A stretch of DNA of 56,306 nt from a virus (IMGVR_UViG_3300027985_000330:1-56306), one strand, 5' to 3'; shown: positions 271 through 46,694, numbered from the stretch's first letter. Program-made: numbers and translations. Notes: generated by a model from the letters alone, not told the origin.

Positions 271-3200
271 TTAGTTTAGATCGGGTTGATACCCACTTGG
301 AAACGATGGTGGATCAATAGGTTGAGATTCTGGAACCGGATATACCTTGACTCCGGCTGTTTCGCCATAAACACTTGTATCAATAACGCCTGTGGCTGGA
401 TTGATCTTCACTAACTGCGGAGAGAAGAAATTTCTAAATTTCCAATAACTATCACCGCTTGTCCACCCTCCGACCTGCTGGGCTACCGGATAACCCTCAA
501 TCATCCTATATAGATTTGTTCCGAGTTGATAATATACAGTATTTGCGAAGAACTTGAGAATGCTTAATGGCGGAGAATCTGGATCATTCTTTGCAATTGC
601 TTCCATGCCAGAAATTACGCCACCCGCATCAACCTTTAATCTATATCCAGCTGATGCATATACATTCCCGAATATATCTACCTTAATGAAGCTATCGAAT
701 AAAGCTTGAGATTTAGCGTATGCATCGTCCCCCCATCTTGTCTCAACGGATTGCAATCTTGTGTTTTGTGCTTCAAGCCTATCGCTTATTCCAGATACTG
801 GGGCTGTTATTTTTTGATCAACAATATCAATCGCTTGATTAACAGTAATCGTTGTTGAATAGTTATTTCTAAGTTCAGTTGTTAAAGAATTCAACTGAGT
901 TCCAGTTACTTGTATATTATTATCAATTCTTCCGATTTCTGAGCGATTATAGTTTATAGCTTCAGAATGACCACTCAACGAACCAAATATATTTGTGAAA
1001 TTCGTTGTAATGATTTGATATTGTTCAGCCCTAGCTAATTCTTCATTCGTCAATGCTGTTGATACTTGCAAAACAGCTGCCTCGTTTTCTGCCGCCTTAC
1101 TTGCGATTCCTTCAATTTGAAGTGCTAATAATCCATTTACTGTTTCAACGACTTGTCTGATTTCTGCAAATGTCGCACCATATCCGGCATCATTGAGTTG
1201 TATTGTAGCTATCAAATCATCAACCTCAGCGTTAAGCCTGTCGCTTATTTGATCGGCATAAGCAGTTAATTCATCTGTTCTTTGATTTGCATATTGCTCG
1301 AAATCATCTAATGCCTGAATTTCTTGTCGAACAACATCCGGACTATATAGATATGGAAAATCTGTTGCACCTTGCCCCAATTTACCATACCACGAAGACC
1401 AAAGCCCTTGACCAACATTGACACCCGCTACACGTATATATTGATAACCGCTTGTATATTTGAACTTTATAGAATTGGTGTATGTGATACCAAGTTGCTG
1501 CCAAGATAAACCATCTAATGATTTCTGGACAATAAAGTATTGAGCACCTAAAGAGCTGCTCCATGTCGCTTGTGCTGTTTGCAGCTCACCAACAACCTCT
1601 ATCACGGATATGGCATAAACATATGGTAAATCCGGTATGTAATCAGATGCGTTCCCGCCTGTTCCATTCGTTCCACCCGAAAAAATACCATCCGGCAATC
1701 CAGATTCTGTCGTATCATCTGCATCATATACGGTTTCGTCGTATTCAACCACACGCATCGTTACATTTTCGCCATCGCTTGGAGTAATAGATACGACCTT
1801 GCATATACCCGCAAAATTATCAGTTGGACCCAAAAACCAGTGAGCATTATTAGATTCAGCATCCAGCTTTAAACTGCTAACATCTATCGATCCATTGACT
1901 ACAATTTGATTTGTTTTGCCATTTCCATAGCAATCATAAGGTCCAAGAGGTTCTCCATTCTTTTTTCGCAATCCTACTTGGTAGGATTTTCCGCTTTCAA
2001 ACTCGATGGTTTTATCTGTATAAATAACATTTCCTTCAATTGCCTGAATGGTTCCGGAATAACCTAAAGCGGCTGAATCATGCGATAGATATATCAAGTC
2101 ACCATAATTCGGTATATTGCCTTCAAGTCCAGTTTGAAACGTGAAATTTTTTCTCAACTTGCGCTGTTGTGATCGGATCCGCATCCCCCATCTATACGCA
2201 ATTGTAACATCGCTAACGCCATTGATTTGAATCGTTTGTGGGTGAACCCCTAGATCATCGTCGACTTTACATAGAATAGTTTCTTTCGCGAATGTAACAC
2301 CATCTATATATTCAATTTCAACAGAGTCATATTCGCTTTCATCATAGAGGCTGAATTCCTCTGAAAACGTGCCTTGAATGATGTTTTCTTTGCTGAAGAC
2401 TGCCGTTGGTATCTCAAGCTTCTTGTCGGCCGTCATCGATATAAGCGTTCCATTCATGATTGGAATAGCCATACCAGCGCGAGCTACCGTTGCGGCAGCC
2501 TCCCAAACTGTAGTTGAGTTATCAAACACCCAGTCAAATGTAACACCTATTTCAGAAAAATATCTATCAAGCTCTAATAGCGATGGTAAATCGAGATAAG
2601 TATCGGATAGATTTGCACCATAAACCGATCTGAATATATCGCAATATGCCCAAACAAGTGATCGAGTTGCAACGCCGGTTTGCCATTGAACTCCGTTCCA
2701 TATATCGAGCTTTCGCGTTGCGATCACATTAATCCGATTTGCGCTTGATGAATTAAGGTTATTTGTCGCCCTTGCCGCAACTGCCAACAACGTTACATTA
2801 CCATAGTTTTTAGTTGATGGAAGAAATGCTCTTAATGATTCCCAAAATAGCGAATCTTGTGCAGATATATTTGTATTTGCTTGATTAGTGCGTTTCCCCC
2901 TGACTTCGTATCTACCGACCGGAACATTTGTTCCAATTGTAAATCGCTGCGGATCTACTGTTTTTAATGTTCTCGCAAATGTAAATAGCGTTTGCCAAGA
3001 TCCTATGGGTGTATTTCCGTCATCGATTTCGCGATATTCGAATAATGCATTTACGCTCGCAAAATCTTCCTTATTTTCGCTATTAATTGTATATAGTCCT
3101 TGCGGCAGTATTAAGTCTACCTCTATATAATTCGTTGTTGTTCCGACATCATTTGTTACGACTCCACCAATAAACCCCGTATACTCGCTTTCATTGCTTC

Positions 3201-3891
3201 CAAACAACTCAACATTCGAAATTTCGCTTGATGTAACAACGTTATCCGGAAATAGTGTAACAGATTCTCCAGGTTTATATATTTGATATGTAACATCTGT
3301 AAAATTGGAGATAGGAGTATCTTCAATTTGTATCGATTCGATATTATAGATTCCTTGACCTAAACAAAATAGTGAATATAACCATTGATCATTATCAACA
3401 TATTTATTATAGGGCTTGGCTGCATATGAAGGCCATAGACGATTTCGTCCGTATGGAACCTCGATAACCTGCCCAAGTTTAAACGCATTATTATGCCCAT
3501 TAAGATTATAAACACTCGCGGCTTCCTGGCGGTTTGAGCTACCGATTTCAGGAATCGGCATTGTTAATGCAATTGCTATAGATGCAACCGCTAAAACTGC
3601 CGAAATGATAATCCCCCAAGTTACGGGATCGAATCCAGATGGGTGTTCGATTAATGCGAATTGATCGTTTTTGCGTATCTTGCGTTTTCCCCAATCCGAT
3701 TGTAATATGTATTCTTTCGTTTTTAAATCCTGCATCAACAGACAACATTCTTTATGTCTGTTTTCCATCCCATTTTCTTTTAAAAATCTACGGATTGAAA
3801 TAGGACGTTCAACGACAAATACATTAGTCGATTCGATAACTTCAGAAATGTTCTGGTTGTATATATCGGTTATGTGTGCGATTTTACCCAT
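271..3891 (-). CDS. Tail tip / host-specificity protein (lambda gpJ-like with fused gpI-like N-terminus)
   Basis: 1206 aa; GQVIEVPYGRNRLWP motif, FN3-like region, C-terminal coiled coil; follows NlpC/P60 and DUF1833 genes. Confidence 0.85.
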   Translation of the reverse strand: MGKIAHITDIYNQNISEVIESTNVFVVERPISIRRFLKENGMENRHKECCLLMQDLKTKEYILQSDWGKRKIRKNDQFALIEHPSGFDPVTWGIIISAVLAVASIAIALTMPIPEIGSSNRQEAASVYNLNGHNNAFKLGQVIEVPYGRNRLWPSYAAKPYNKYVDNDQWLYSLFCLGQGIYNIESIQIEDTPISNFTDVTYQIYKPGESVTLFPDNVVTSSEISNVELFGSNESEYTGFIGGVVTNDVGTTTNYIEVDLILPQGLYTINSENKEDFASVNALFEYREIDDGNTPIGSWQTLFTFARTLKTVDPQRFTIGTNVPVGRYEVRGKRTNQANTNISAQDSLFWESLRAFLPSTKNYGNVTLLAVAARATNNLNSSSANRINVIATRKLDIWNGVQWQTGVATRSLVWAYCDIFRSVYGANLSDTYLDLPSLLELDRYFSEIGVTFDWVFDNSTTVWEAAATVARAGMAIPIMNGTLISMTADKKLEIPTAVFSKENIIQGTFSEEFSLYDESEYDSVEIEYIDGVTFAKETILCKVDDDLGVHPQTIQINGVSDVTIAYRWGMRIRSQQRKLRKNFTFQTGLEGNIPNYGDLIYLSHDSAALGYSGTIQAIEGNVIYTDKTIEFESGKSYQVGLRKKNGEPLGPYDCYGNGKTNQIVVNGSIDVSSLKLDAESNNAHWFLGPTDNFAGICKVVSITPSDGENVTMRVVEYDETVYDADDTTESGLPDGIFSGGTNGTGGNASDYIPDLPYVYAISVIEVVGELQTAQATWSSSLGAQYFIVQKSLDGLSWQQLGITYTNSIKFKYTSGYQYIRVAGVNVGQGLWSSWYGKLGQGATDFPYLYSPDVVRQEIQALDDFEQYANQRTDELTAYADQISDRLNAEVDDLIATIQLNDAGYGATFAEIRQVVETVNGLLALQIEGIASKAAENEAAVLQVSTALTNEELARAEQYQIITTNFTNIFGSLSGHSEAINYNRSEIGRIDNNIQVTGTQLNSLTTELRNNYSTTITVNQAIDIVDQKITAPVSGISDRLEAQNTRLQSVETRWGDDAYAKSQALFDSFIKVDIFGNVYASAGYRLKVDAGGVISGMEAIAKNDPDSPPLSILKFFANTVYYQLGTNLYRMIEGYPVAQQVGGWTSGDSYWKFRNFFSPQLVKINPATGVIDTSVYGETAGVKVYPVPESQPIDPPSFPSGYQPDLN

Positions 3892-30438: not shown

Positions 30439-30996
30439 TTAGTATTTAAATCCTGTTATTGATTCGATGTTTGTTGGATAAATTGATTGCTCTACGCATA
30501 CATTTATGTATCTAGGATCGTAAATGCATGAATCGGTAGAACCGGGATCTGCATTCTTTTCCAGTATTGGAATCCTGATTTTACGTTGATGCGTGTGTCC
30601 ATGAACATTAGCGATACACCAATGCGGAATTGACGCGCTATGAATCGGATAATGTGAGAGCAATAAATTTCCAATCTTCCAACCCGCTCGAATATCTTCG
30701 AAATATTTTAGATATTCTTTAGCCCCGTAATGATCATGGTTTCCACCAATTAGAATCTTGCGTCCATTGAGTTTAGAACATTTCTCAAGTGCTTTTCGTG
30801 GAATTGCAATATCTCCCAATATATAACATGTATCTGCATTTTTGACAATGGAATTATAGGCTTCTATCATGATTTCGTCACCTTCATCAGAATTCAAAGC
30901 CCATGGACGAATCGAAATTCCGTTTTCATCCTTAAACTTACTATATACGGATTCGTGTCCGAAGTGAAAATCACTTATGACAAATCTACGTTTCAT
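30439..30996 (-). CDS. Calcineurin-like metallophosphoesterase
   Basis: SDFHFGH, LGD, GNHD, SHYP, HGHTH. Confidence 0.9.
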   Translation of the reverse strand: MKRRFVISDFHFGHESVYSKFKDENGISIRPWALNSDEGDEIMIEAYNSIVKNADTCYILGDIAIPRKALEKCSKLNGRKILIGGNHDHYGAKEYLKYFEDIRAGWKIGNLLLSHYPIHSASIPHWCIANVHGHTHQRKIRIPILEKNADPGSTDSCIYDPRYINVCVEQSIYPTNIESITGFKY

Positions 30997-31261: not shown

Positions 31262-31666
31262 TTAAATATACTCAAAGCGTTGCTTTTGTTGTGCAACGAT
31301 ATTATCAGGAACGTTATGCGTATTCTGAAAATTTCCGTCCATTTCTTTTACGTAAACCGTATATCCATATTTATTAGCAAGCTTAATATATGGTTCATAT
31401 TCCCATTTTCGCGTAAATGTATTTGAAACGATGACACTATCTCAATCGTTTAACATCGCAGCTTCTGCTGTGTGTTGGCAGAGTTCATGGCAATGCTTAA
31501 GTTTTGCTGGTTCGAACTTATATTGTTTATTTTCATCGATCATGAACATATCAGATTCAACATGCAAAGCAAGCAATCCGCTTAATACAGATTCTTGCCA
31601 AAGCTTATTTGCAAATGTGGTTTTACCGCTTCCGCTCCATCCTCGAATAATCCAAAGTTCTTTCAT
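31262..31666 (-). pseudogene. P-loop (AAA_33 / PNK-like) kinase interrupted by one in-frame TGA at 31442-31444
   Basis: RGWSGSGKTT; same frame continues DSVIVSNTFTRKWEYEPY...HNVP...RFEYI to TAA at 31262. Confidence 0.8.
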
Positions 31667-31720
31667 TTTTCAAAACGAAAGCATATTTTTGATTGATTTG
31701 CAAGCATAAAATGAAGCAAG

Positions 31721-31803
31721 CAATAAAAAAGCCGTCGAAAGACGGCTAATCTAACACTGAGTTGGATTGCACCTCGTTACCTCGGGCAATCAACATTCTT
31801 GTT
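31721..31803 (+). repeat. ~82-bp direct repeat copy 1 (terminator + first attC-like site)
   Basis: Matches 42645-42726 except one substitution and one indel in the loop; identity ends at the GTT core. Confidence 0.95.
31725..31747 (-). terminator. Rho-independent terminator closing cassette array A
   Basis: GCCGTC-TTTC-GACGGC followed by T6. Confidence 0.8.
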
Positions 31804-32064
31804 CTGAGAAATAGTTATGGTTATACTTTCGCCCCTCTCTATTTGATTTTTTTCAACAAATGTTTCCAGTAGCTTTATAAATCCTGACAGTCCTCCAACA
31901 ATTGAAACCATTTCAGTGTCTTTGATTTTTCCCTTTGTTTCAGTGTCGTGACCAGCACCCCAAGATGTAAATCCGTATGTGCTGACAATGAATTTGCCAG
32001 AACAAGGCGTTTGAATTGAATTGCGAGAATCTCTCGCGTTTTGTTTGTCTGTTTCGTTGTTCAT
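31777..32064 (-). CDS. Cassette A1 hypothetical protein
   Basis: Likely start MNNETDK inside attC loop; C-terminus runs into the next attC arm. Confidence 0.6.
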   Translation of the reverse strand: MNNETDKQNARDSRNSIQTPCSGKFIVSTYGFTSWGAGHDTETKGKIKDTEMVSIVGGLSGFIKLLETFVEKNQIERGESITITISQNKNVDCPR

Positions 32065-32107
32065 ATCTTTATTAGTTCGTGTTCTCGCAATCATTCAACT
32101 TGTGGTT

Positions 32108-32356
32108 CTACAGATATTTGTTTGCGTCTTTCACGGCAGATCTATCCTGCTTGGTTGCAGACGGATAAACCATGTCAGCAAGTGGACACATCCGAAAATC
32201 TAGCACCATTTGAAATCTCCGAATGGTGAAATACCAGAGCCGACCACCCCAATACCGGTCAAATACAAACCACTTTTTCCAGCAGTTCTTATTCTTTTTG
32301 TGTTTTCGAAAGCTTACTTTTGGGAGCTTCCATCTATTTGCTTTTAACATATTCAT
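32108..32356 (-). CDS. Cassette A2 hypothetical basic protein
   Basis: Stop codon lies within core GTTCTAC. Confidence 0.6.
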   Translation of the reverse strand: MNMLKANRWKLPKVSFRKHKKNKNCWKKWFVFDRYWGGRLWYFTIRRFQMVLDFRMCPLADMVYPSATKQDRSAVKDANKYL

Positions 32357-32396
32357 AATAAAATTTTAGTAGAACAAATCAGTTCGTCGGAATTGC

Positions 32397-32771
32397 TTAC
32401 CGTTCCTGCTCGCAATCCACGACTTCGCGGTTCGGCAAATAAGGAAGCGGTATCCAGTGAGTTGGTTCATTCGCACCATCAAGCTTGTGCTGTGACACAG
32501 AATTTTTAACGTAACTCCACCATCCTTCTGCCTCTTGTTGTGAATCATAACCTTGATCCTTCCATAGCTCAACCTCAGTTCCATCTGTAGCGATTATAAC
32601 CCCAGTATCATAAAAGGCATTATGAACAATCCAAACAGATGCGAAATCGTATCCAACTATAATTTCAGTTCCATCTTTTGGTGCCGTCTCAATAGACATC
32701 CAAGCCGAACAAGGCGTTTTAAGAAACTCGCTACCGCTCGTTTCGTTTTGATTATGTATATCTTTTGTCAT
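32397..32771 (-). CDS. Cassette A3, DUF551-like phage protein
   Basis: WMSIETAPKDGTEII ... PTHWIPLP motifs; start in attC loop. Confidence 0.7.
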   Translation of the reverse strand: MTKDIHNQNETSGSEFLKTPCSAWMSIETAPKDGTEIIVGYDFASVWIVHNAFYDTGVIIATDGTEVELWKDQGYDSQQEAEGWWSYVKNSVSQHKLDGANEPTHWIPLPYLPNREVVDCEQER

Positions 32772-32792
32772 AGCTCGTTCTTAAACTTAGCG

Positions 32793-32987
32793 TTAGCTAG
32801 ATTCTTCATTGATTTCTTCTAATGTCATTTTGATTTTCGTTTCACCAATTCCGTGTTTATACCACAATAATGTAAACTCGTGTTTTGCCATATCGGTCAT
32901 ACCAGCGTTTAGAATCTTGGTGTATTCCGGCATAGCCCATTCTCCAGTCATTTCAATACATTCTTCAAATAATTCTCCAGCTTTCAT
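32793..32987 (-). CDS. Cassette A4 hypothetical protein
   Basis: AAAGGA RBS; TAA stop formed by the GTTA core. Confidence 0.6.
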   Translation of the reverse strand: MKAGELFEECIEMTGEWAMPEYTKILNAGMTDMAKHEFTLLWYKHGIGETKIKMTLEEINEESS

Positions 32988-33063
32988 AGCGTTTCCTTTC
33001 TAATTTGGAGCTAACAATACATTCTATGTAATCCTGAACCGCTCCGATCTCAGGATACATAAA

Positions 33064-33318
33064 TTAAGCGTTCGGAGAAATAAATTTCACCCACTCCCAA
33101 TGCCCAAACGTGCAAATAGAATCTCGATAACCGTATCCATGGCATCCAAGATTTCGACTTTCGTTGCTATGCTTGCGTGCCGTCGTTGCGCTTATTTTTG
33201 TCCAAAGCACTCCAAATTCATTTTGGAATCGGTCGCCTTCGATCAAATCTCCAAAGGTCACCGAACAAGGCGCTGTATCCAATTCGGACACGTCCGCGTT
33301 TTGGTTGTCGTTACTCAT
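33064..33318 (-). CDS. Cassette A5 hypothetical protein
   Basis: Likely start MSNDNQ in attC loop; TFGDLIEGDRF motif. Confidence 0.6.
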   Translation of the reverse strand: MSNDNQNADVSELDTAPCSVTFGDLIEGDRFQNEFGVLWTKISATTARKHSNESRNLGCHGYGYRDSICTFGHWEWVKFISPNA

Positions 33319-33357
33319 AATTTTTGTCCTCATGGATAAGCTTTGCGTTGGACACAT

Positions 33358-33618
33358 TTACTTAGATTGTGGAAACCCTGACGCCATTGCGTTGACTGCA
33401 ATAGCCCACATTAAAAGGATTATCCCAGTTGCTATTACTTCAATGTCGGTTTCAAAGTGATAGTTCCAGCCAACATACATGGTTGTTTCAAGCCAGTATG
33501 GAATTGTTGATACGATGGTAATAATTCCGGCATATATTTTTGTCCAACAAATCTGTGGAGAGGAACACTCTACCTGCTCCTCGGTTTTCGTAGTATCTGT
33601 TTTCATTTTAGCTTTCAT
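33358..33618 (-). CDS. Cassette A6 two-TM membrane protein
   Basis: Start in attC loop; two hydrophobic segments. Confidence 0.6.
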   Translation of the reverse strand: MKAKMKTDTTKTEEQVECSSPQICWTKIYAGIITIVSTIPYWLETTMYVGWNYHFETDIEVIATGIILLMWAIAVNAMASGFPQSK

Positions 33619-33641
33619 TTTTCGTGTCCCTCACATCGGCG

Positions 33642-34055
33642 TTATGCATTTAATGGTTGTTTCGTTTTTGCATCAATCCAACCTTGCTTTATTCCGAAAT
33701 CTTCATCGAAATCGTAAGTTTCAAATTTATGCGAATCACTTCTGTTTACACAATGGCAAAAGACCATTTCGCAACTTCTCTTTGTTAACGGTCCAATCTG
33801 ACGGTCAACTTTTCTGGTTTCTTTGTTTACGAGTTGTATATAATAGTTCATATCGAGGTTAGCCAATGAAGAATCCCGTTTTAGCCCCCGCCTGCCCATT
33901 TCGTCGCAATACACGACTAAACCAGCAAAGCACGATGCCTGCCAGTCCGAACCAGCCTCGGCTTCCAGCAGATCGGCGTGGGCCTGCTCTGCACGTTGCA
34001 TTAGTTCGGAATCCGCGAGGGATGCGGTATATTTTTTGATGTCTCCGTAAGTCAT
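33642..34055 (-). CDS. Fused ORF spanning two cassettes (junction at 33858)
   Basis: GC-rich 5' half joined in frame at core GTTAGCC to AT-rich half with own Met (MNYYIQ). Confidence 0.55.
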   Translation of the reverse strand: MTYGDIKKYTASLADSELMQRAEQAHADLLEAEAGSDWQASCFAGLVVYCDEMGRRGLKRDSSLANLDMNYYIQLVNKETRKVDRQIGPLTKRSCEMVFCHCVNRSDSHKFETYDFDEDFGIKQGWIDAKTKQPLNA

Positions 34056-34134
34056 AGTAAAAAAGAGAGGCTAACAAAGCGATCTAGCCAATTCAGACCC
34101 CGCTCGCTTTGTGGTTGTTCGTATGTTTTCTGAT

Positions 34135-34251
34135 TTAGTCTTCATGGCTAATCTTATGGTTCTCAGATAAAACAGGCAAGCGCAAAAGCGCAGCAACCTT
34201 TGCTTTGCTACCGCGTTTCTTCCGTTCGCGCTTGTAGTCGGGTGGGGTCAT
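34135..34251 (-). pseudogene. Short, apparently internally deleted HTH-like ORF
   Basis: MTPPDYKRERKKRGSKAKVAALLRLPVLSEN...; resembles first two helices of small Xre-type HTH proteins. Confidence 0.35.
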
Positions 34252-34454
34252 GCAATCCAAGATTTTACCTGTTCTTTGGTTGCAAAAGTCACATGGCCAT
34301 TGTCGGTTGTGACTTCAAATTTTCCTGCTACCGCATCGACGCGACGAGCGCGAAATCCGTTTTCCATCATTGGGCGAACTGGGGTGTTTTTTAGTGCTTT
34401 GTTGATTTTGTTTTGAAGTGTTTTCATATTTTTATGGTTTTCCGTTGGGCTCAT
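34248..34454 (-). CDS. Cassette hypothetical protein with own promoter
   Basis: ATGA-coupled to downstream HTH-like ORF. Confidence 0.55.
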   Translation of the reverse strand: MSPTENHKNMKTLQNKINKALKNTPVRPMMENGFRARRVDAVAGKFEVTTDNGHVTFATKEQVKSWIA

Positions 34455-34467
34455 TCCCTTCGATGTT

Positions 34468-34523
34468 TTTAATATCGCACAATCTGCGATTTATTGCAAG
34501 CATTATTTTCGCATTTTGTGCGA
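34468..34523 (-). promoter_or_regulatory. Cassette-internal promoter with two palindromic operators
   Basis: TTGCAA-17-GATATT; TCGCA-N5-TGCGA at 34475-34489 and 34509-34523. Confidence 0.55.
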
Positions 34524-34605
34524 TTTTTTTTAACCAAACAAAATGGAATGAGAACAAACTGCTGGAGTGAATGCCGAGAAAGCTCGTCATCCACTCAGCT
34601 CACGG

Positions 34606-34752
34606 TTATATAAATAAACAATCACATTCACGCCATGATTCACGTTTTTTATTGACGATAATCTCAACGTATTTCCCACCGTTTAGTTCGTATTTTTCAA
34701 CGAATGTTGCAACTAGTTTTAGTTTCTTGTGCATTACTTGTTTTGTTTTCAT
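34606..34752 (-). CDS. Hypothetical protein at head of array A
   Basis: Start MKTKQ just after promoter; TAA stop formed by last GTTA core. Confidence 0.5.
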   Translation of the reverse strand: MKTKQVMHKKLKLVATFVEKYELNGGKYVEIIVNKKRESWRECDCLFI

Positions 34753-34805
34753 GGTTGTATAGTAGCGCAAACGTATTACGCACGTCAATACTTTTTTTAA
34801 AAAAA
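34753..34805 (-). promoter_or_regulatory. Sigma70-like promoter with T7A7 UP-like tract driving array A
   Basis: TTGACG-18-TACTAT; related motif at 19997, 28778, 29050, 52133. Confidence 0.6.
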
Positions 34806-36239
34806 TTACAGCACGCCGTAAAATTTACCGTCATCGACTAAATGCGCGAACCCTTGAGAGAGTGCATCTACTTGGTCTTTGTATTTGCTTGCCGGAAAGT
34901 ATTGCAATTCATCAATCAAAGCACGATTCCACGCACCCCTAACCATTTTTACATTTCCGTTATTGACTTGAGATGCTAACGGTCCAGCCCGATCCGCTTT
35001 ATTACCTGTAGGCAAATCTATGATAACTTCCCAACCCATTAGCATTCTGGCCGTAGCTTCCGCAACCTCGAGTCCGCTCGATCCGCCTTGCCTTTCTATT
35101 ATAATCGGAATATTTTTACCATCTGCAGTTGCTGTCTGTTTTATGATTGGTTCACGTTCCGAAAAATCCCATTGGCCCCTAACCATGTCTAAAAACCAAA
35201 TAACGCCGCGAGTATCAATGCCAATCTCACATCCAGCAGTATAACATCCCCTATCCTTTAAACCGGCCGTATCCCAAGATCGAATGGATCTAACTAGATT
35301 ATATGGACGTTCATCTTCTATCTGTATCCGAGCTGTTTTAAACATGCCACCTTCTCGCGGAATCGGTGTTTGCATGTATTGGCATGCATATCCGAACGAA
35401 CCAAGAATAGCTTTTTTTTCATCTAAAACCGAACGCGACAACCGAACAGGATCGAGCAATCCATCTTTATAAAATCTTTTGTATTTTGCAGGCTTTACAT
35501 TATCGCTTAATTCGGCCGGAAAGCACAAATGTTTTATTTTTCCGCCTAGTTCTAATTTTGATCCGGTTGGATCGTCTTGCGCAATTCGCTGCATAATTAA
35601 TGCCTCAACAGAAACTGCAGAATCTACTTTTCTTGATGGCAAAACTTCATTTTGGAAAAGATTAGCTTTGTATTTTTCGGCATCAGAATCACCGTCTAAT
35701 ACTTTTAGCGGATCATCTGGAATAATAAAATGCGCATGACTTCCGGTTGGATTTCCACCTGTAGAAAATGTTAATCTTTCGCCCCCAAGCGTGTTTCCAA
35801 ATGTTTGAACTCCATCATTGTCACGCCTTATTTCAATTTCTGAAAAAAGCTTTTTATATTTATCACTCTTGATAATATCTCGACATTTCCTTGAAAGACG
35901 TTCAGCCAATCTCGATTCGCAACTTGTGCAAATAATAACCGCATGCGGCATTCTTGTCCATATCCATGCAGGAAAGGCAATCGAGCAAATACTGCTCTTT
36001 GATGTAGATGGTGGAACATTAATAATTAAATCATATAGCTTCTCCTTCCCATCAAATACGCGCTCTGCAACCTTTTGAAGCTCATTACATAATACCTCAT
36101 GATGGAAATTAATAACAAGCTTTTCATGGTTATTTACTTCCCAAAATTCTTTGAAGAAAATCAGAAAAGAACTCCTACACGCTTCAGCAAGAAATATGTC
36201 TTCGTTAATCTGCATTAATTCCGTAGTCTTTCGGATCAC
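34806..36239 (-). CDS. terL: Terminase large subunit
   Basis: IINVPPSTSKS Walker A variant, IIPDDP, IMQRI, SWDTA, DQVDALSQ. Confidence 0.93.
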   Translation of the reverse strand: MIRKTTELMQINEDIFLAEACRSSFLIFFKEFWEVNNHEKLVINFHHEVLCNELQKVAERVFDGKEKLYDLIINVPPSTSKSSICSIAFPAWIWTRMPHAVIICTSCESRLAERLSRKCRDIIKSDKYKKLFSEIEIRRDNDGVQTFGNTLGGERLTFSTGGNPTGSHAHFIIPDDPLKVLDGDSDAEKYKANLFQNEVLPSRKVDSAVSVEALIMQRIAQDDPTGSKLELGGKIKHLCFPAELSDNVKPAKYKRFYKDGLLDPVRLSRSVLDEKKAILGSFGYACQYMQTPIPREGGMFKTARIQIEDERPYNLVRSIRSWDTAGLKDRGCYTAGCEIGIDTRGVIWFLDMVRGQWDFSEREPIIKQTATADGKNIPIIIERQGGSSGLEVAEATARMLMGWEVIIDLPTGNKADRAGPLASQVNNGNVKMVRGAWNRALIDELQYFPASKYKDQVDALSQGFAHLVDDGKFYGVL

Positions 36240-37996: not shown

Positions 37997-39211
37997 TTAT
38001 TCCTTTTTCTTGTAATCTAAAAAATAATCTGTATGCGCAATCTCGTTTGTCCACTTCGGAACAATCTGAATTGAATATCCGCTATAGCTATCTCCAAAGT
38101 TATGCTGAACCCACGCGCTAGGCGGTGCGAAACTCATAAAGTTTCTATAATCAAACCGCTTCGTCCGCTCGTATCCAACTTGATGCAAATCACCTTTATG
38201 AACATGCACGAATTTTGAATCAATTCCATAATGTTCAATATAATCCCATATGAAATTCTTTGCCGCATCAGTAAGCTTAAACGGTAATCCACGATTCTGA
38301 AACTTGGCATCCTTTCCATGTGTCAATACAAAGCAATGATTTCCGTAAACGCGATGCTCTACAAAACGTTTAATTGTATCTATCTCAACAATAGATGAAT
38401 CATAAAGCATGTTTATAATCTTCTGAACGGCACTATTCACAATCAATGCAAATTGATGAGAATGATTTGCATTAGTAACCGTCCGAAGCATAATCTTATT
38501 TGCAATTCTCGCGTCAACGCACGAGCGCACAAGCTTTACCTTATTATCTACACAACACTCAAACATTTCAAGCTCTGTCATATTTTGTTCAAGCGAATGA
38601 TTTCCGCGAGTTGTAAGTCCATTCCATCCGTCTTGTGTATCGCCCAAATCATCCAGCAAAAGCAAATCAAATGTTCCATATTGTCGATGCTCTTTTTCGA
38701 TTGATCCGAATACCTTTTGCATGGATTCTCCGTAGACTTGTGCATTATATTCATACGCGAAAATTGAATCTATTGGCAACGGATCAAGCCCAACGTGCTC
38801 ATCGCTTGTTACCGCAACGCAAGCCATTGGATCACTAATCTTTATCGGCTCAAATAAGATAGGATCATCTACTGGATATTTTCGAATGATCTTTTCAAAT
38901 GCATCAAGGTAATCAATAGCGTTTGTTTTATCAAGCTTCGTATAGACGGACATCTCTTTTGATTTCGTCCAATAGCTTGATACCTCTGAAATGTTGATTC
39001 CTTTTTCTTTACAAAACGCCCTTAACACCTCATGATTAACTCCTTCAAGAACCTGATTGCTATTTTCAATTCGCTTTCCCTCTATAAATGCTTTCACCCA
39101 CATTCTACAGGTCATTTCGCTTATATTGAATCTTTCTGAAATTTGCCTTCTACCTAATCCGCTTTCCATTGCGGCGTAAATCTCATCAGGTATTTCTACG
39201 GTTACTTGCAT
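37997..39211 (-). CDS. Metallophosphoesterase/nuclease-like protein with N-terminal HTH
   Basis: SDEHVG, LGD, ANHS, THG, GDLH. Confidence 0.7.
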   Translation of the reverse strand: MQVTVEIPDEIYAAMESGLGRRQISERFNISEMTCRMWVKAFIEGKRIENSNQVLEGVNHEVLRAFCKEKGINISEVSSYWTKSKEMSVYTKLDKTNAIDYLDAFEKIIRKYPVDDPILFEPIKISDPMACVAVTSDEHVGLDPLPIDSIFAYEYNAQVYGESMQKVFGSIEKEHRQYGTFDLLLLDDLGDTQDGWNGLTTRGNHSLEQNMTELEMFECCVDNKVKLVRSCVDARIANKIMLRTVTNANHSHQFALIVNSAVQKIINMLYDSSIVEIDTIKRFVEHRVYGNHCFVLTHGKDAKFQNRGLPFKLTDAAKNFIWDYIEHYGIDSKFVHVHKGDLHQVGYERTKRFDYRNFMSFAPPSAWVQHNFGDSYSGYSIQIVPKWTNEIAHTDYFLDYKKKE

Positions 39212-42644: not shown

Positions 42645-42726
42645 CAATAAAAAAGCCGTCGAAAGACGGCTAATCTAACACTGAGTTGGATTGCACCTCG
42701 TTACCCCGGCAATCAACATTCTTGTT
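42645..42726 (+). repeat. ~82-bp direct repeat copy 2 (terminator + first attC-like site)
   Basis: Matches 31721-31803. Confidence 0.95.
42649..42671 (-). terminator. Rho-independent terminator closing cassette array B
   Basis: Identical to 31725-31747. Confidence 0.8.
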
Positions 42727-44200
42727 GGCAAGAGTATTTTTCTTTAAGTCTGCGAAGTTGCTCGCGTTCATTCGCTTCAATTTGCTCCCGTTTTTTATGT
42801 TCAGACTCTAATCTAAACTGATATTCTTCATCTGTTTCAAGTCTATCATATTTTACCTCAATGGTTGCAGTCGCGCTATCATAGAACTCGTATGCATCAG
42901 TTCTGAAGATAGTATGCTCTATATGTTCCTCCGGAATGTATTCAACCAAGTCATTAATCCACTTTTGAAAGTCTAAAATGTTATTATTCCAATCGGAAAT
43001 ATCCAAATCAGACCAATCTTGATCGTTGTATATATATACTGTTTTAGTTCGTTTTTCCATTTTCGTAAGTTTATTTAATGATAACAAAGCAGTTCGATTA
43101 ACTCGCTACCGCTCGCAATCGACTTTTGGGTTAGCAAAGTAATTGCTCTATTGCTATAAGCATACCAGAAGCTTCGAGCATTTGCCCGCCAATGACAGCT
43201 TTAAATGTCTTTGAGTTTTCTGGTGATCGTTCATACTCCTTTTCTAGCGTATCAATTCTGCCATTGATATAGCTAACAAGTCGTTCGAGGTCGGAATTGC
43301 GAACACGCCGCAATTCCGAAGTATCATTATTTGTTGTCATATCTTTTCGGTTTTAAAGTTTTAGTTACTCGCAATCCCTCAACTTATGGTTATGCATATG
43401 ATATTGCTTCAATCAGTTCCTTATATTGTGGATTCTGTTTTATTGCGCGTTCTGCACCATCCCAATACAGATCATCCACAACCCTTTTTGGCATCATTGC
43501 CTTTGCGACTTCGATTTGTGATCTTAGTCTCGCTTTTGCCATTTTAATTTGGCGTATTTGTTCTTCAATTTCTGCATTCATGGCATAACAAGGCGTTTTA
43601 AAAAATTCCGCAATTCTCCATCTCTTTTAGTTCGATCATTCATCATGCGCTCCATTCTTAAACTTTTGGTTCGCTAAAATAAAATTTGCATACTCCAACG
43701 CCCTTGAGCTTCTGAATACTCCCCAAAACTCTGCCCAAGTTCCATCTCCACAATCTACGTTCCACGTTTCCACGCTTGTGTCGAATGTAACAAGCGGATG
43801 ATTTGTTTTTCGTATCCAACTATCTTCGACTTCGTAATCTAATAGAATTAATTGCGAACAAAACGGTGGAAGCAATTCGCTACCGTTCATCTTCTGATTT
43901 TCATTAGTTTGTGTTTTATCGCTCATGCTTCGCCTTTGGGTTTCCAAAATATCGATCAACGTCTATATTCCATTGAATCAACTCATCGATCTTTCGCCTA
44001 ACATCTGCTACAGTCTTGCACCCATCTGCCGTTCCAATACAAGCTACGATCATCATTTCATCCAGTGCCTTGTAGTATATGTTGCCCTCGGTGTCGGTTT
44101 CCGAGAATCCATCAGAACAATCCGCGTAAGAGGAACGCTCTATTGCACTAGTTTTGTTTTCGTTGCTCATGGGTTCGAGTCCCTCACATCTGCGTTAGAG
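42673..44200 (+). mobile_element. Cassette array B: cluster of 6 attC-like sites, no integrase (CALIN-like)
   Basis: Sites at 42673-42730, 43079-43136, 43271-43395, 43583-43675, 43853-43946, 44112-44200 separating five minus-strand ORFs (ending at 42713, 43131, 43390, 43636, 43916). Confidence 0.85.
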
Positions 44201-45797: not shown

Positions 45798-46694
45798 TTA
45801 AAATACTTCTGTTAGTGTTTCTTTGATTTTTCGGATTAAAAGTGTATTTAGAGTCTTAAAATCTACTTTTGGCATCTTATATTTTTTAACTATATTCCAA
45901 GATTCTTCAATAATGAATTCATTAAAACAGCGTGACAGTAATTCTGGTATATATTTCGAACTCCAACCATCGTGTAATTCTTTCACTTTTTCGAATTCTT
46001 TTTCGATAAATGCAGTTGTCGCCAAATCATTAATGATCTCTTCTTCAATCATCTTAGATCCTTTCGATTCTGGAGCACCCATTTCTTTTCGATGCTTTTC
46101 TTTGAATTCGCTCGTTACTATTTTTGCCCATGTTTTGCGACCATATTTATTTTCGTAATTATAGTTTTTGCAAACTACACCTTCTCCAGTTCCTTCACCA
46201 TCCTTTATTAGATAGTTATTTTCGTCTAAACATTTTAGCAAATTCTCATATGTAGGATTATTAATAATGCGCAATGGTGGAATATATTGGATACCATATT
46301 CTTCCAAGATTTCGCTGTATTGTTCATAGGTTAAATAATCTCCGCATGAATCAATAACATCAAATACGTAGAAATTGCGCCATGCCGATTCTCTATATGT
46401 TTTTAATGAATGCGGAACGAGCCATTCTCCAGCTAAACGAAGTTTTGGAAATTCTTTGAAAAACTCTTCAAATTGTTTCTGAGTTACCGCCCAATTCATA
46501 AACCCAGCATTATCATTTTCAATACTTAATTGGCGATTGCGTGATCCAGCGCAAAGTTCACCATCTGAATCGAGCCAGAGCTGAGCATTTGTTCCGTCTA
46601 TTTTCGGAAACACATAAACGCGACCGATAAGAATTCCGTCTGTTTCATCAGTTCCCAATCGTTCAACGTGCTGATATTTTTGATATTCACTCAT
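45798..46694 (-). CDS. RNA ligase (Rnl2-like)
   Basis: KIDGTN, GSRNR, GEW, FYVFDV, EGVVCK, WAKIV nucleotidyltransferase motifs. Confidence 0.85.
   Translation of the reverse strand: MSEYQKYQHVERLGTDETDGILIGRVYVFPKIDGTNAQLWLDSDGELCAGSRNRQLSIENDNAGFMNWAVTQKQFEEFFKEFPKLRLAGEWLVPHSLKTYRESAWRNFYVFDVIDSCGDYLTYEQYSEILEEYGIQYIPPLRIINNPTYENLLKCLDENNYLIKDGEGTGEGVVCKNYNYENKYGRKTWAKIVTSEFKEKHRKEMGAPESKGSKMIEEEIINDLATTAFIEKEFEKVKELHDGWSSKYIPELLSRCFNEFIIEESWNIVKKYKMPKVDFKTLNTLLIRKIKETLTEVF

Follow-up and report, generated by a model that had tools for sequence, protein, structure and literature searches.

The viral contig IMGVR_UViG_3300027985_000330 (from here: the window, i.e. the whole stretch of 56,306 bases that was analysed, 38.6% G+C) carries two arrays of hairpin sites that resemble the attC recombination sites of integrons and alternate with small open reading frames (ORFs). 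The window corresponds to the entire contig C244 of a bin of 2.74 Mb (265 contigs, 76.6% complete) and comprises the genome of a tailed phage, in full or in large part. Its proteins include a portal, a Mu-F-like head protein, a large terminase, a primase-helicase, a Cas4/RecB-like exonuclease, two DNA methyltransferases and an RNA ligase. The minus strand carries nearly all genes, and a terminal repeat was not found on the contig. An initial annotation had placed nine attC-like sites between 31749 and 34611, with a small ORF in most intervals. All nine were recovered at these places, the site given there as an example (33009–33076) reads as described, and each of the eight intervals holds one minus-strand ORF. 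From here, this cluster is called array A (sites A1 to A9) and the second one array B (sites B1 to B6). The features are listed below, where cores extend from AAC to GTT, codon scores are codon-usage log-odds, and R1 and R2 are two covariance models introduced further on.

31725–31747, minus strand: intrinsic terminator just downstream, in gene direction, of array A; stem 31747–31730 followed by a T run
31749–31807, plus strand: attC-type site A1, a "bookend" and the first site on the top strand; core 31753–31803; near-identical copies open array B and the array of contig C129
31777–32094, minus strand: cassette ORF; likely start codon ATG at 32064 inside A2, last codons and stop in A1; codon score +0.28
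31997–32111, plus strand: attC-type site A2, long form; 107-nt core 32001–32107, with a start codon and polar leader on the minus strand; R1 23.7 bits, E 8.8e-4, exact ends
32108–32356, minus strand: cassette ORF, 82 aa, own start codon; codon score +0.01, the weakest of the set
32369–32436, plus strand: attC-type site A3, short form; 60-nt core 32373–32432; R1 10 bits
32397–32771, minus strand: cassette ORF, 124 aa, DUF551-like; leader in A4, tail in A3; codon score +0.35
32704–32798, plus strand: attC-type site A4, long form with start codon and leader; core 32708–32794; R1 20.8 bits, E 0.0049; R2 78.2 bits (a member of the R2 training set)
32793–32987, minus strand: cassette ORF, 64 aa, own start codon; codon score +0.44
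33009–33076, plus strand: attC-type site A5, short form, the example of the initial annotation; core 33013–33072; R1 8.4 bits
33064–33357, minus strand: cassette ORF, leader begins inside A6; codon score +0.09
33260–33353, plus strand: attC-type site A6, long form with Shine-Dalgarno-like motif, start codon and leader; core 33264–33349; R1 16.2 bits
33358–33618, minus strand: cassette ORF, 86 aa, hydrophobic, leader begins inside A7; codon score +0.24
33542–33647, plus strand: attC-type site A7, long form; core 33546–33643; R1 16.2 bits
33642–34055, minus strand: ORF, 137 aa, apparently two fused cassettes; internal GTTAGCC at 33859–33865 and a step in G+C
34069–34165, plus strand: attC-type site A8, long form, leader frame stopped in the R'' box; core 34073–34161; R1 11.0 bits
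34248–34454, minus strand: cassette ORF, 68 aa; codon score +0.25; Pfam hint XtrA below the cut-off (E 0.023)
34455–34552, minus strand: conserved non-coding stretch in the last cassette with a 19-nt inverted repeat (34471–34489 / 34509–34527); 93.5% identical in C129
34549–34611, plus strand: attC-type site A9, short form, second "bookend", common to C129; core 34553–34607
42673–42730, 43079–43136, 43271–43395, 43583–43675, 43853–43946 and 44112–44200, plus strand: the six attC-type sites of array B, from the scan and the models
42713–43087, 43131–43340, 43390–43581, 43636–43959 and 43916–44170, minus strand: the five ORFs of array B, no Pfam family

On the plus strand, the sites follow one pattern: nnnnAAC, 5 nt, a bulged stem, a variable-length loop, the second stem arm, 5 nt and GTTnnnn, with core lengths of 50–117 nt across both arrays. 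The AAC (R'') and GTT (R') triplets are invariant in all 15 aligned sites. The two spacers measure 5/5 nt in most sites and 5/6 nt in two; the right spacer of A1 is 6 nt long. One to three unpaired bases occur on the AAC-side arm, the first always after 3 bp (alignment column 16). The uniform spacers and the restriction of unpaired bases to this one arm agree with the geometry described in the initial annotation. Unpaired central spacers between R and L box, extrahelical bases on a single arm and a variable terminal structure are features of attC sites (Cury et al. 2016, Fig. 2 legend). A strict geometry scan of the whole bin (2 × 2,742,294 bases) returned 288 matches, about 0.05 per kb per strand, while array A has 9 in 2.9 kb. 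Twelve of the 15 strict matches on the window contig fall inside the two arrays.

The predicted pairing is supported by covariation, which was measured on a MAFFT alignment of 15 sites. In the stem beside the spacers, 89.7% of the cells pair, compared with 66.7% in shuffles, and compensatory double changes occur in 43 cells versus 14.3 in shuffles (0 of 500 shuffles reached as many). Seven of the eight stem pairs covary. If the partner column is slid by 1–3 positions, pairing drops to 28–47%.

Moreover, the sites and integron attCs are recognized by models built from each other. Covariance model R1 was made from 14 Vibrio attCs only and run on the window with filters off; its seven top places were predicted sites, with ends exact to the base and all on the plus strand. 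At E ≤ 10, predicted sites accounted for 10 of its 21 matches, the best two scoring 23.7 and 20.8 bits. On the same scale, the attCs of the Tetrasphaera phage TJE1 reached 27.1, 25.9 and 22.1 bits and a site of contig C129 26.8 bits. Model R2, made only from 15 sites of the window and C129 with their own structure, gave 19 matches at E ≤ 1 on 90 kb of Vibrio and TJE1 records, all of which were attCs (16 Vibrio, 3 TJE1), including two Vibrio sites that the geometry scanner had missed. The scanner itself was controlled on the Vibrio prophage record MK672802, which contains IntIA and cassettes and in which it found 14 attCs with 5/5 spacers, the AACAA...GCGTT motif and chained ends, and on TJE1, where it found 2 attCs of the published three-site cluster, chained; two sites of that cluster had been assayed by Qi et al. 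(2023). Support from covariance models, named as a check in the initial annotation, was thus obtained in both directions, and the attC architecture proposed there fits by geometry, end complementarity, reciprocal models and two positive controls.

The end complementarity concerns the units between the sites. When the four bases that follow GTT are compared with the four preceding the next AAC, they are reverse-complementary at 41 of 52 positions across 13 units, a value reached by none of 200,000 permutations, and five of the eight units of array A have perfect 7/7 ends. For comparison, pairings of non-adjacent ends gave 1.39 of 4 and the two ends of a single site 1.13 of 4. In integrons, such complementarity is the trace left by the insertion of circular cassettes, in whose attC the R box is fully paired, into the G|TT of another site. 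Chained sites of this kind were found in the bin on contigs C244 and C129 only. Dense scanner matches on C150, C185, C223, C253 and C58 lacked both the motif and the chaining and were discarded as noise.

The point of exchange can be read from repeated sites. A1 is 98% identical to its copy in C129 and 94.5% identical to that in array B; all three agree fully from AATCTAAC up to the right-hand GTT and diverge at the next base. The terminator to the left of A1 is common to arrays A and B, where the copy at 42649–42671 is identical to that at 31725–31747, and is absent beside the C129 copy. At the other end, 93.5% identity to C129 is seen over A9 and the 90 nt on its left. From these limits of identity it follows that the plus strand is the attC top strand, that the crossover lies at the R' box and that each unit owns the site to its right. 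Terminator and A1 are duplicated as a block of about 85 nt (31725–31807 and 42649–42730) at the low-coordinate end of both arrays. The arrays are separated by an 8-kb packaging module, from terminase to portal, whose flanks GTTATAT / ATCTAAC are complementary at 5 of 7 positions.

Contig C129 also documents turnover. Only its last 570 bases (94%) and the two bookend sites are common to the window. Between the bookends, C129 contains a single unit of 673 nt (GTTCTCA/TGAGAAC, three small ORFs) in place of the eight units of the window, and beyond the A9-type site it has one further unit (GTTAGAT/ATCTAAC) and a third site. The cassette-precise gain and loss among related phages that the initial annotation had suggested looking for was therefore seen in the comparison with C129, where the variation is bounded at the sites. 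In addition, A2-like and A8-like sites are linked to different DNA on contigs of two sequencing runs, X1 and X2; these runs probably represent the source sample filed twice, are not independent and leave parts of the window uncovered, including the larger part of array B. One run contig joining 32108 (the R' end of A2) to 33262 (the R'' start of A6) was not counted as an excision product, as intervening letters are possible. Judged from these contigs, the content of the arrays differs between co-occurring variants. The array of C129 (L044) sits between a sliding-clamp-like and a Rad52/Erf-like gene (827–1585 and 2697–3785, both on the minus strand, named by eye), a context that differs from that of both window arrays.

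All 13 cassette ORFs lie on the minus strand, antisense to the attC top strand, and each attC stands at the 5' end of its own gene. The orientation of the sites was set by the R1 matches, which occur on the plus strand alone, and by the arm that bears the bulges. That the minus-strand ORFs are the real genes is suggested by codon usage: their log-odds range from +0.01 to +0.44, the average for phage genes of 100–200 aa being +0.25, and of the 17 plus-strand ORFs in the arrays, 16 have negative values and the remaining one scores +0.09. Hence, none of the 13 ORFs shows the canonical cassette layout with the gene on the top strand and the attC at its 3' end.

Seven sites (A2, A4, A6, A7, B4, B5 and B6) have an open TGT-Tnn frame that crosses the R'' box and connects the loop with a body of 63–104 aa. 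No in-frame start was seen in the loop of B4. As read from the translations, five of the seven bodies have no other early start codon, the B3 leader passes R'' in another frame and the A8 leader is ended by a stop. The leaders are alike and polar (M-S/T-N/D-rich ... G-S-E-L/F ... C-S). Short sites have no start codon, and the start of their genes lies in the body. The ends of genes frequently reach a few codons into the neighbouring site, which has stops in all three frames, read by eye. The start codons embedded in the long sites are probably used for translation. A limited full-text literature search found no publication that describes antisense cassettes in phages or start codons within attCs.

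Two features of array A deserve separate mention. In the ORF at 33642–34055, the heptamer GTTAGCC at 33859–33865 is the exact complement of the R'' box of A8, and the upstream half (33862–34068), whose ends form a perfect GTTAGCC/GGCTAAC pair, has 52.7% G+C versus 35.3% for 33644–33858 and 35–44% around. An attC to the left of 33859 was sought by eye and none was recognizable. Apparently, two cassettes were fused here in frame after losing the intervening attC. The conserved stretch at 34455–34552, with its inverted repeat, is probably a promoter/operator for array A.

None of the 13 cassette ORFs matched a Pfam or PHROG family above threshold. The initial annotation had called one cargo gene an ordinary, DUF551-like phage gene; the family label is marginal (Pfam E 0.011, 17 bits, cut-off 22), and the gene's presence among phages was borne out, since viral contigs encode relatives of this 124-aa protein at 80 loci. 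Ten relatives were present in the protein collection. The homologous body fills the interior of the cassette: it stretches from W24, immediately behind the R'' box, to about P113, at the R' box. A leader is missing from four of the relatives, which start 1–2 residues before the conserved W; six extend further at the N terminus, and one has a leader ending in ...PACS-T-W.

Adjacency of sites was read in the first 38 of the 80 viral loci. In eight of these (L138–L145, 61–65% G+C), an attC-type site adjoins the gene and is always on the opposite strand. Another 28 have no attC-type site nearby, L128 has one weak minus-strand match about 150 nt downstream of the gene, and L163 has an array about 260 nt downstream. 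Five perfect 7/7 chains were found (L138, L139, twice in L144, and L163), all on the strand opposite to the gene, among 134 scanner matches in 2 × 566,663 bases. The homologous gene has GTTCTGT/ACAGAAC at its flanks in L138 and L140, so that a gene bounded at the sites, whose absence from relatives would have spoken against the initial annotation, does occur. L144 has six sites; ORFs start inside four of them, with acidic-polar leaders and an nGT-Tnn frame through R''. Several of the sites in these loci are supported by R2 at 13–31 bits. R1 with default filters gave nothing in the 80 viral loci and on the whole bin missed even the window sites, so that neither search is informative, and an exact pattern derived from A1 had no match in viral or metagenome contigs. 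As these sequences show, the inverted-cassette architecture recurs in unrelated viral contigs of high G+C content.

A tyrosine recombinase is encoded in four of five viral contigs searched, four of the five being of the inverted design and the fifth (G062/L141) having a single adjacent site. Three of the four recombinases are small and Xer-like (287–329 aa, without a TIGR02249 match), and the fourth is an arm-type integrase of 427 aa. The Xer-like gene lies 330 nt from an attC-type site in L140 and 6–10 kb from the cassette in the other two contigs. Pairwise identities among the three Xer-like enzymes are only 25–33%, and neither the window nor the bin contains a homologue of them.

The bin from which the window derives has an RpoB 89–90% identical to those of Crocinitomicaceae/Flavobacteriales genomes, the nearest terminase relatives belong to Cellulophaga and Croceibacter phages (37%), and Shine-Dalgarno-like motifs are scarce upstream of the genes of the window (19 of 56 with a loose 4-mer set). 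Taken together, these sequence features make a host among the Flavobacteriales plausible. Relatives of the large terminase (TerL) are all distant, with identities of 26–49% in IMG/VR, at most 53% in JGI/ENA metagenomes and 32–47% in GTDB genomes, and chained sites were absent from the seven IMG/VR TerL-relative loci scanned. A blastn search with 31400–34900 had no match in the phage collection, and Rfam had none in the window at gathering thresholds.

An integron in the strict sense, with an intI including its extra domain, an attI and a Pc promoter beside the array, was not found. A cluster of two or more attC sites without a nearby intI is classified as a CALIN (attC cluster that lacks an integron integrase), and most CALINs have fewer than 6 sites (Cury et al. 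2016). With 9 and 6 sites and no match to PF00589 on the 56,306-base contig, both arrays fall under this definition; the lack of an integrase in the cluster, stated in the initial annotation, holds, and in the bin TIGR02249 stays under its cut-off. In a screen of 10,705 phage genomes, 3 integrons, 1 In0 and 17 CALINs were reported; moreover, IntI1 recombined five of six phage attCs with attI1, and bottom strands were more active (Qi et al. 2023, PMC9892861). Such phage-borne CALINs are the closest published counterparts; an example is that of TJE1, likewise an integrase-less attC cluster in a tailed phage with small cassettes mostly of unknown function. Its attCs score 26.6, 26.6 and 21.0 bits with R2, and its GTTnnnn/nnnnAAC ends are complementary as in the window. 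However, published phage CALINs have a minimum of 2 sites and TJE1 has 3 (PMC9892861) compared with 9 plus 6 here, and the genes of TJE1 are in sense orientation with the attC after the gene, whereas those of the window are antisense with the site before the gene and able to hold its start codon. P12002L, a published Flavobacteriia phage, gave one weak R2 match of 20.2 bits.

The Vibrio array in MK672802, which represents the sedentary chromosomal integrons with VCR-type attCs, resembles the window arrays in the R box, the unpaired 5-nt spacers, the 3 bp followed by a bulge and the variable loop, and shares with them the motif AACAAGGCGTTTAAG...CTTAA...GCGTT as well as the complementarity of the ends of the same cassette. 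It differs in lying beside IntIA with 15 of 18 annotated coding sequences in sense orientation (own count), while the window lacks an integrase and an attI, and in its homogeneous attCs of 89–120 nt, as opposed to heterogeneous sites of 50–117 nt. One same-genus bacterial bin (G012, contig C214, locus L221, 5447 bases) holds a canonical array that comprises six or seven related attCs and has its genes in sense orientation. This array shares with the window the attC type (starting with AACAAGTCG...), a G+C content of 0.39 and chained ends such as GTTAGAC/GTCTAAC, and differs in that it lies on a contig of a bacterial bin with the genes on the attC strand. From reading of the translations, its cargo consists of toxin-antitoxin-like pairs and lipoprotein-like ORFs. 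An integron integrase above the cut-off was not found in G012 (89% complete). This array implies that integron-type recombination has operated in that lineage, and the candidate host lineage is a possible source of the enzyme. A different principle is known from T4-type phages, in which PeSLs (promoter early stem-loop elements), repeated hairpin modules between small accessory genes, have been proposed to shuffle genes. PeSLs act by homologous recombination between promoter-hairpin repeats and are not known to have unit-specific inverted 7-mers or attC geometry.

The site structure, the family membership according to the models, the end complementarity, the antisense orientation and the site-bounded variation are observed, and on these grounds we are confident that arrays A and B are genuine cassette arrays of the attC type, produced through site-specific recombination at the R' box. 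They represent a phage CALIN, a rich member of the published kind, whose inverted genes, 5' leader function of the attC and bookends are, as far as we found, undescribed. Read on the plus strand, a unit would consist of TTnnnn, the antisense gene, n'n'n'n'AAC, 5 nt, the bulged stem, the variable loop, the other stem arm, 5 nt and G. A tyrosine recombinase of the IntI kind would insert, remove or swap such units via a folded single strand, with the crossover at the G|TT of the right-hand (R') box. Because it is not encoded on C244, this enzyme would have to come from elsewhere, be it the host, a missing phage part or a co-resident element; for a canonical IntI supplied in trans, we see about even chances. 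In the long sites, the loop would provide the ribosome-binding region, the start codon and 12–25 codons of polar leader in frame through R'' into the body. Array A as a whole would act as a plug-in slot, extending from a conserved cassette that bears the promoter on the A9 side to the terminal site, likewise conserved, and terminator on the A1 side. Here the enzyme, present-day activity, the promoter role and the use of the embedded start codons are what we infer.

A number of observations weigh against this interpretation. PF00589 had no match on C244 or C129, and with Pfam and/or PHROGs no recombinase was recognized among the proteins examined, which comprised 30 of the larger ones of the window, two small flanking ORFs and all 13 cassette ORFs; C244 has about 90 ORFs of at least 90 aa, and no single protein was scanned against every library. 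IntI above the TIGR02249 cut-off was found neither in the bin (76.6% complete) nor in 60 related genomes, and a search with R2 and strict filters yielded no attC array in 149 of the 150 relatives covered. The genes are oriented opposite to those of a canonical cassette, which leaves room for an IntI-independent origin. With R1, five of the 15 sites (A1, A9, B1, B4 and B6) were missed at E ≤ 10 and only two sites were individually below E 0.01. Three units have poor end complementarity (2/4, 2/4 and 1/4), and the identity at A9 extends about 12 nt beyond GTT before fading. The sequence was found in two runs only, probably the source data filed twice, and no close relative of the phage was found in the collections searched. 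The degenerate consensus of the R'' box is RYYYAAC. For the R' box, it is given as G|TTRRRY (Qi et al. 2023, PMC9892861). Only 3 of 15 R'' boxes and 1 of 15 R' boxes fit RYYYAAC / GTTRRRY in full; as the Vibrio control sites fit RYYY as rarely (3 of 14), this consensus does not discriminate.

The search for the recombinase produced several candidates that were not retained. The best TIGR02249 match in the bin reached 51 bits (cut-off 265), is on a contig other than C244 and consists of two pieces with the middle absent. Many two-piece matches in the relatives summed to about 200–230 bits, in ORFs of about 280–290 aa and 380–450 aa; the pieces are only about 17–20 aa apart, so that the IntI-specific insert is absent. 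The longer ones, many of them near the ends of contigs, we take to be other integrases, of the arm type as in conjugative transposons, and they were dropped. No attC array was present beside two-piece recombinases in ten regions scanned, six of which were also searched with R2. In 7 of 7 draft genomes (G004, G017, G023, G025, G028, G040 and G044), tyrosine recombinases of about 383–398 aa sit about 0.2–1.3 kb from a contig end, which suggests that they belong to a multi-copy element that breaks assemblies. R2 matches in G054 and G030 proved to be isolated sites.

Other explanations differ in the enzyme, in the role of the phage or in the nature of the sites. The attC-shaped sites could be moved by a non-canonical enzyme, a small Xer-like one of phage or host origin or another strand-specific recombinase, which would make the arrays a sister system of integrons. 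We regard this as rather unlikely, although it would accommodate the failure to find IntI in C244, the bin or the 60 relatives, and the uniform inversion of the genes, which is hard to obtain from borrowed bacterial cassettes. The recombinases of four of the five viral contigs, three of them small and Xer-like, and the short distance in L140 point in the same direction. Yet the enzyme is remote from the cassette in the two other contigs, the three proteins have diverged widely from each other and are without a homologue in window or bin, and they may be mere lysogeny integrases. In addition, the sites and the models of IntI substrates agree both ways (R1 and R2), and IntI1 uses published phage attCs (Qi et al. 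2023, PMC9892861).

Very unlikely, in our assessment, is a scenario of passive passengers, in which host integron pieces entered by illegitimate recombination, as in Vibrio anguillarum prophages, without a phage role or turnover. Such capture is documented (Qi et al. 2023, PMC9892861), and the same-genus genome G012 does have an array of related attCs with similar G+C content. A chance capture is at odds with two separate arrays that each open with the same site and are each followed by the same terminator, with 13 of 13 ORFs that follow phage transcription and have phage-like codon usage, and with gene orientations opposite to those of G012:C214 and of the Vibrio integron (15 of 18 coding sequences in sense). 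Moreover, the sole cargo gene for which relatives were found is one common among phages (80 viral loci), and the array content varies between co-occurring variants. Finally, the hairpins might be no recombination sites at all and serve regulation as terminators or in RNA stability, or be repeats kept by paralogous N-terminal leaders. Their location between genes and the partial likeness of the long sites at the protein level (M-S/T-N/D-rich ... C-S leaders) would fit, but there are no T tails on the coding strand, where a terminator scan finds 31747–31730 alone, and the short sites keep the geometry without a leader. Unit-specific 7-nt inverted ends are not explicable by regulation or paralogy, and integron-trained and site-trained models detect one another, so that we consider this explanation extremely improbable.

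Beyond the favoured interpretation of a phage CALIN, a more far-reaching possibility can be put forward tentatively. Tailed phages of unrelated lineages, comprising the low-GC, probably Flavobacteriales-infecting phage described here and the viral contigs of 61–65% G+C, might possess their own "inverted" class of attC, in which the site is the 5' module of the gene and which is perhaps moved by small Xer-like enzymes instead of IntI. The loop would then be the translation-initiation region and the leader would always run in the nGT-Tnn frame through the GTT of R''. A cassette is generally a promoter-less gene associated with an attC (Richard et al. 2024). In bacterial integrons, the site follows the gene; inverted cassettes are therefore not simply borrowed and would be made and moved within phage populations.

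Some further features of the window lie outside the arrays. A 74-aa P-loop ORF at 31442–31666 (minus strand) matches only the N-terminal part of kinase/ATPase PHROGs of 280–295 aa, polynucleotide kinase included, and looks truncated or split. A metallophosphatase and an RNA ligase are also encoded (30439–30996 and 45798–46694, both on the minus strand), and the three may be remnants of an RNA-repair set. In the non-coding segment 25980–26125, short repeats of the CCGAATTGAA / ATTGAATTAAAC kind occur in a run; they resemble iterons and might mark an origin. Between the portal and Mu-F genes, a 404-aa protein (37997–39211, minus strand) has a weak N-terminal helix-turn-helix match, and its PHROG matches are one unknown family and one "DNA repair exonuclease" family.

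Integrons have been viewed as bacterial devices, and attCs in phages, few in number, were shown only recently (Qi et al. 2023, PMC9892861). Two long, framed arrays with variant-dependent content are what a working slot for accessory genes is expected to look like. The small orphan proteins that make up their cargo are plausible factors of early infection or counter-defence. The inverted genes and the starts inside sites are outside the textbook cassette, and their recurrence points to a phage-adapted branch. The finding bears on the birth of new cassettes, that is the joining of a gene and an attC, and on enzymes that use attC-shaped DNA without IntI. If an own inverted class of attC does exist in phages, it would provide a natural system for studying how an attC is born beside a gene.

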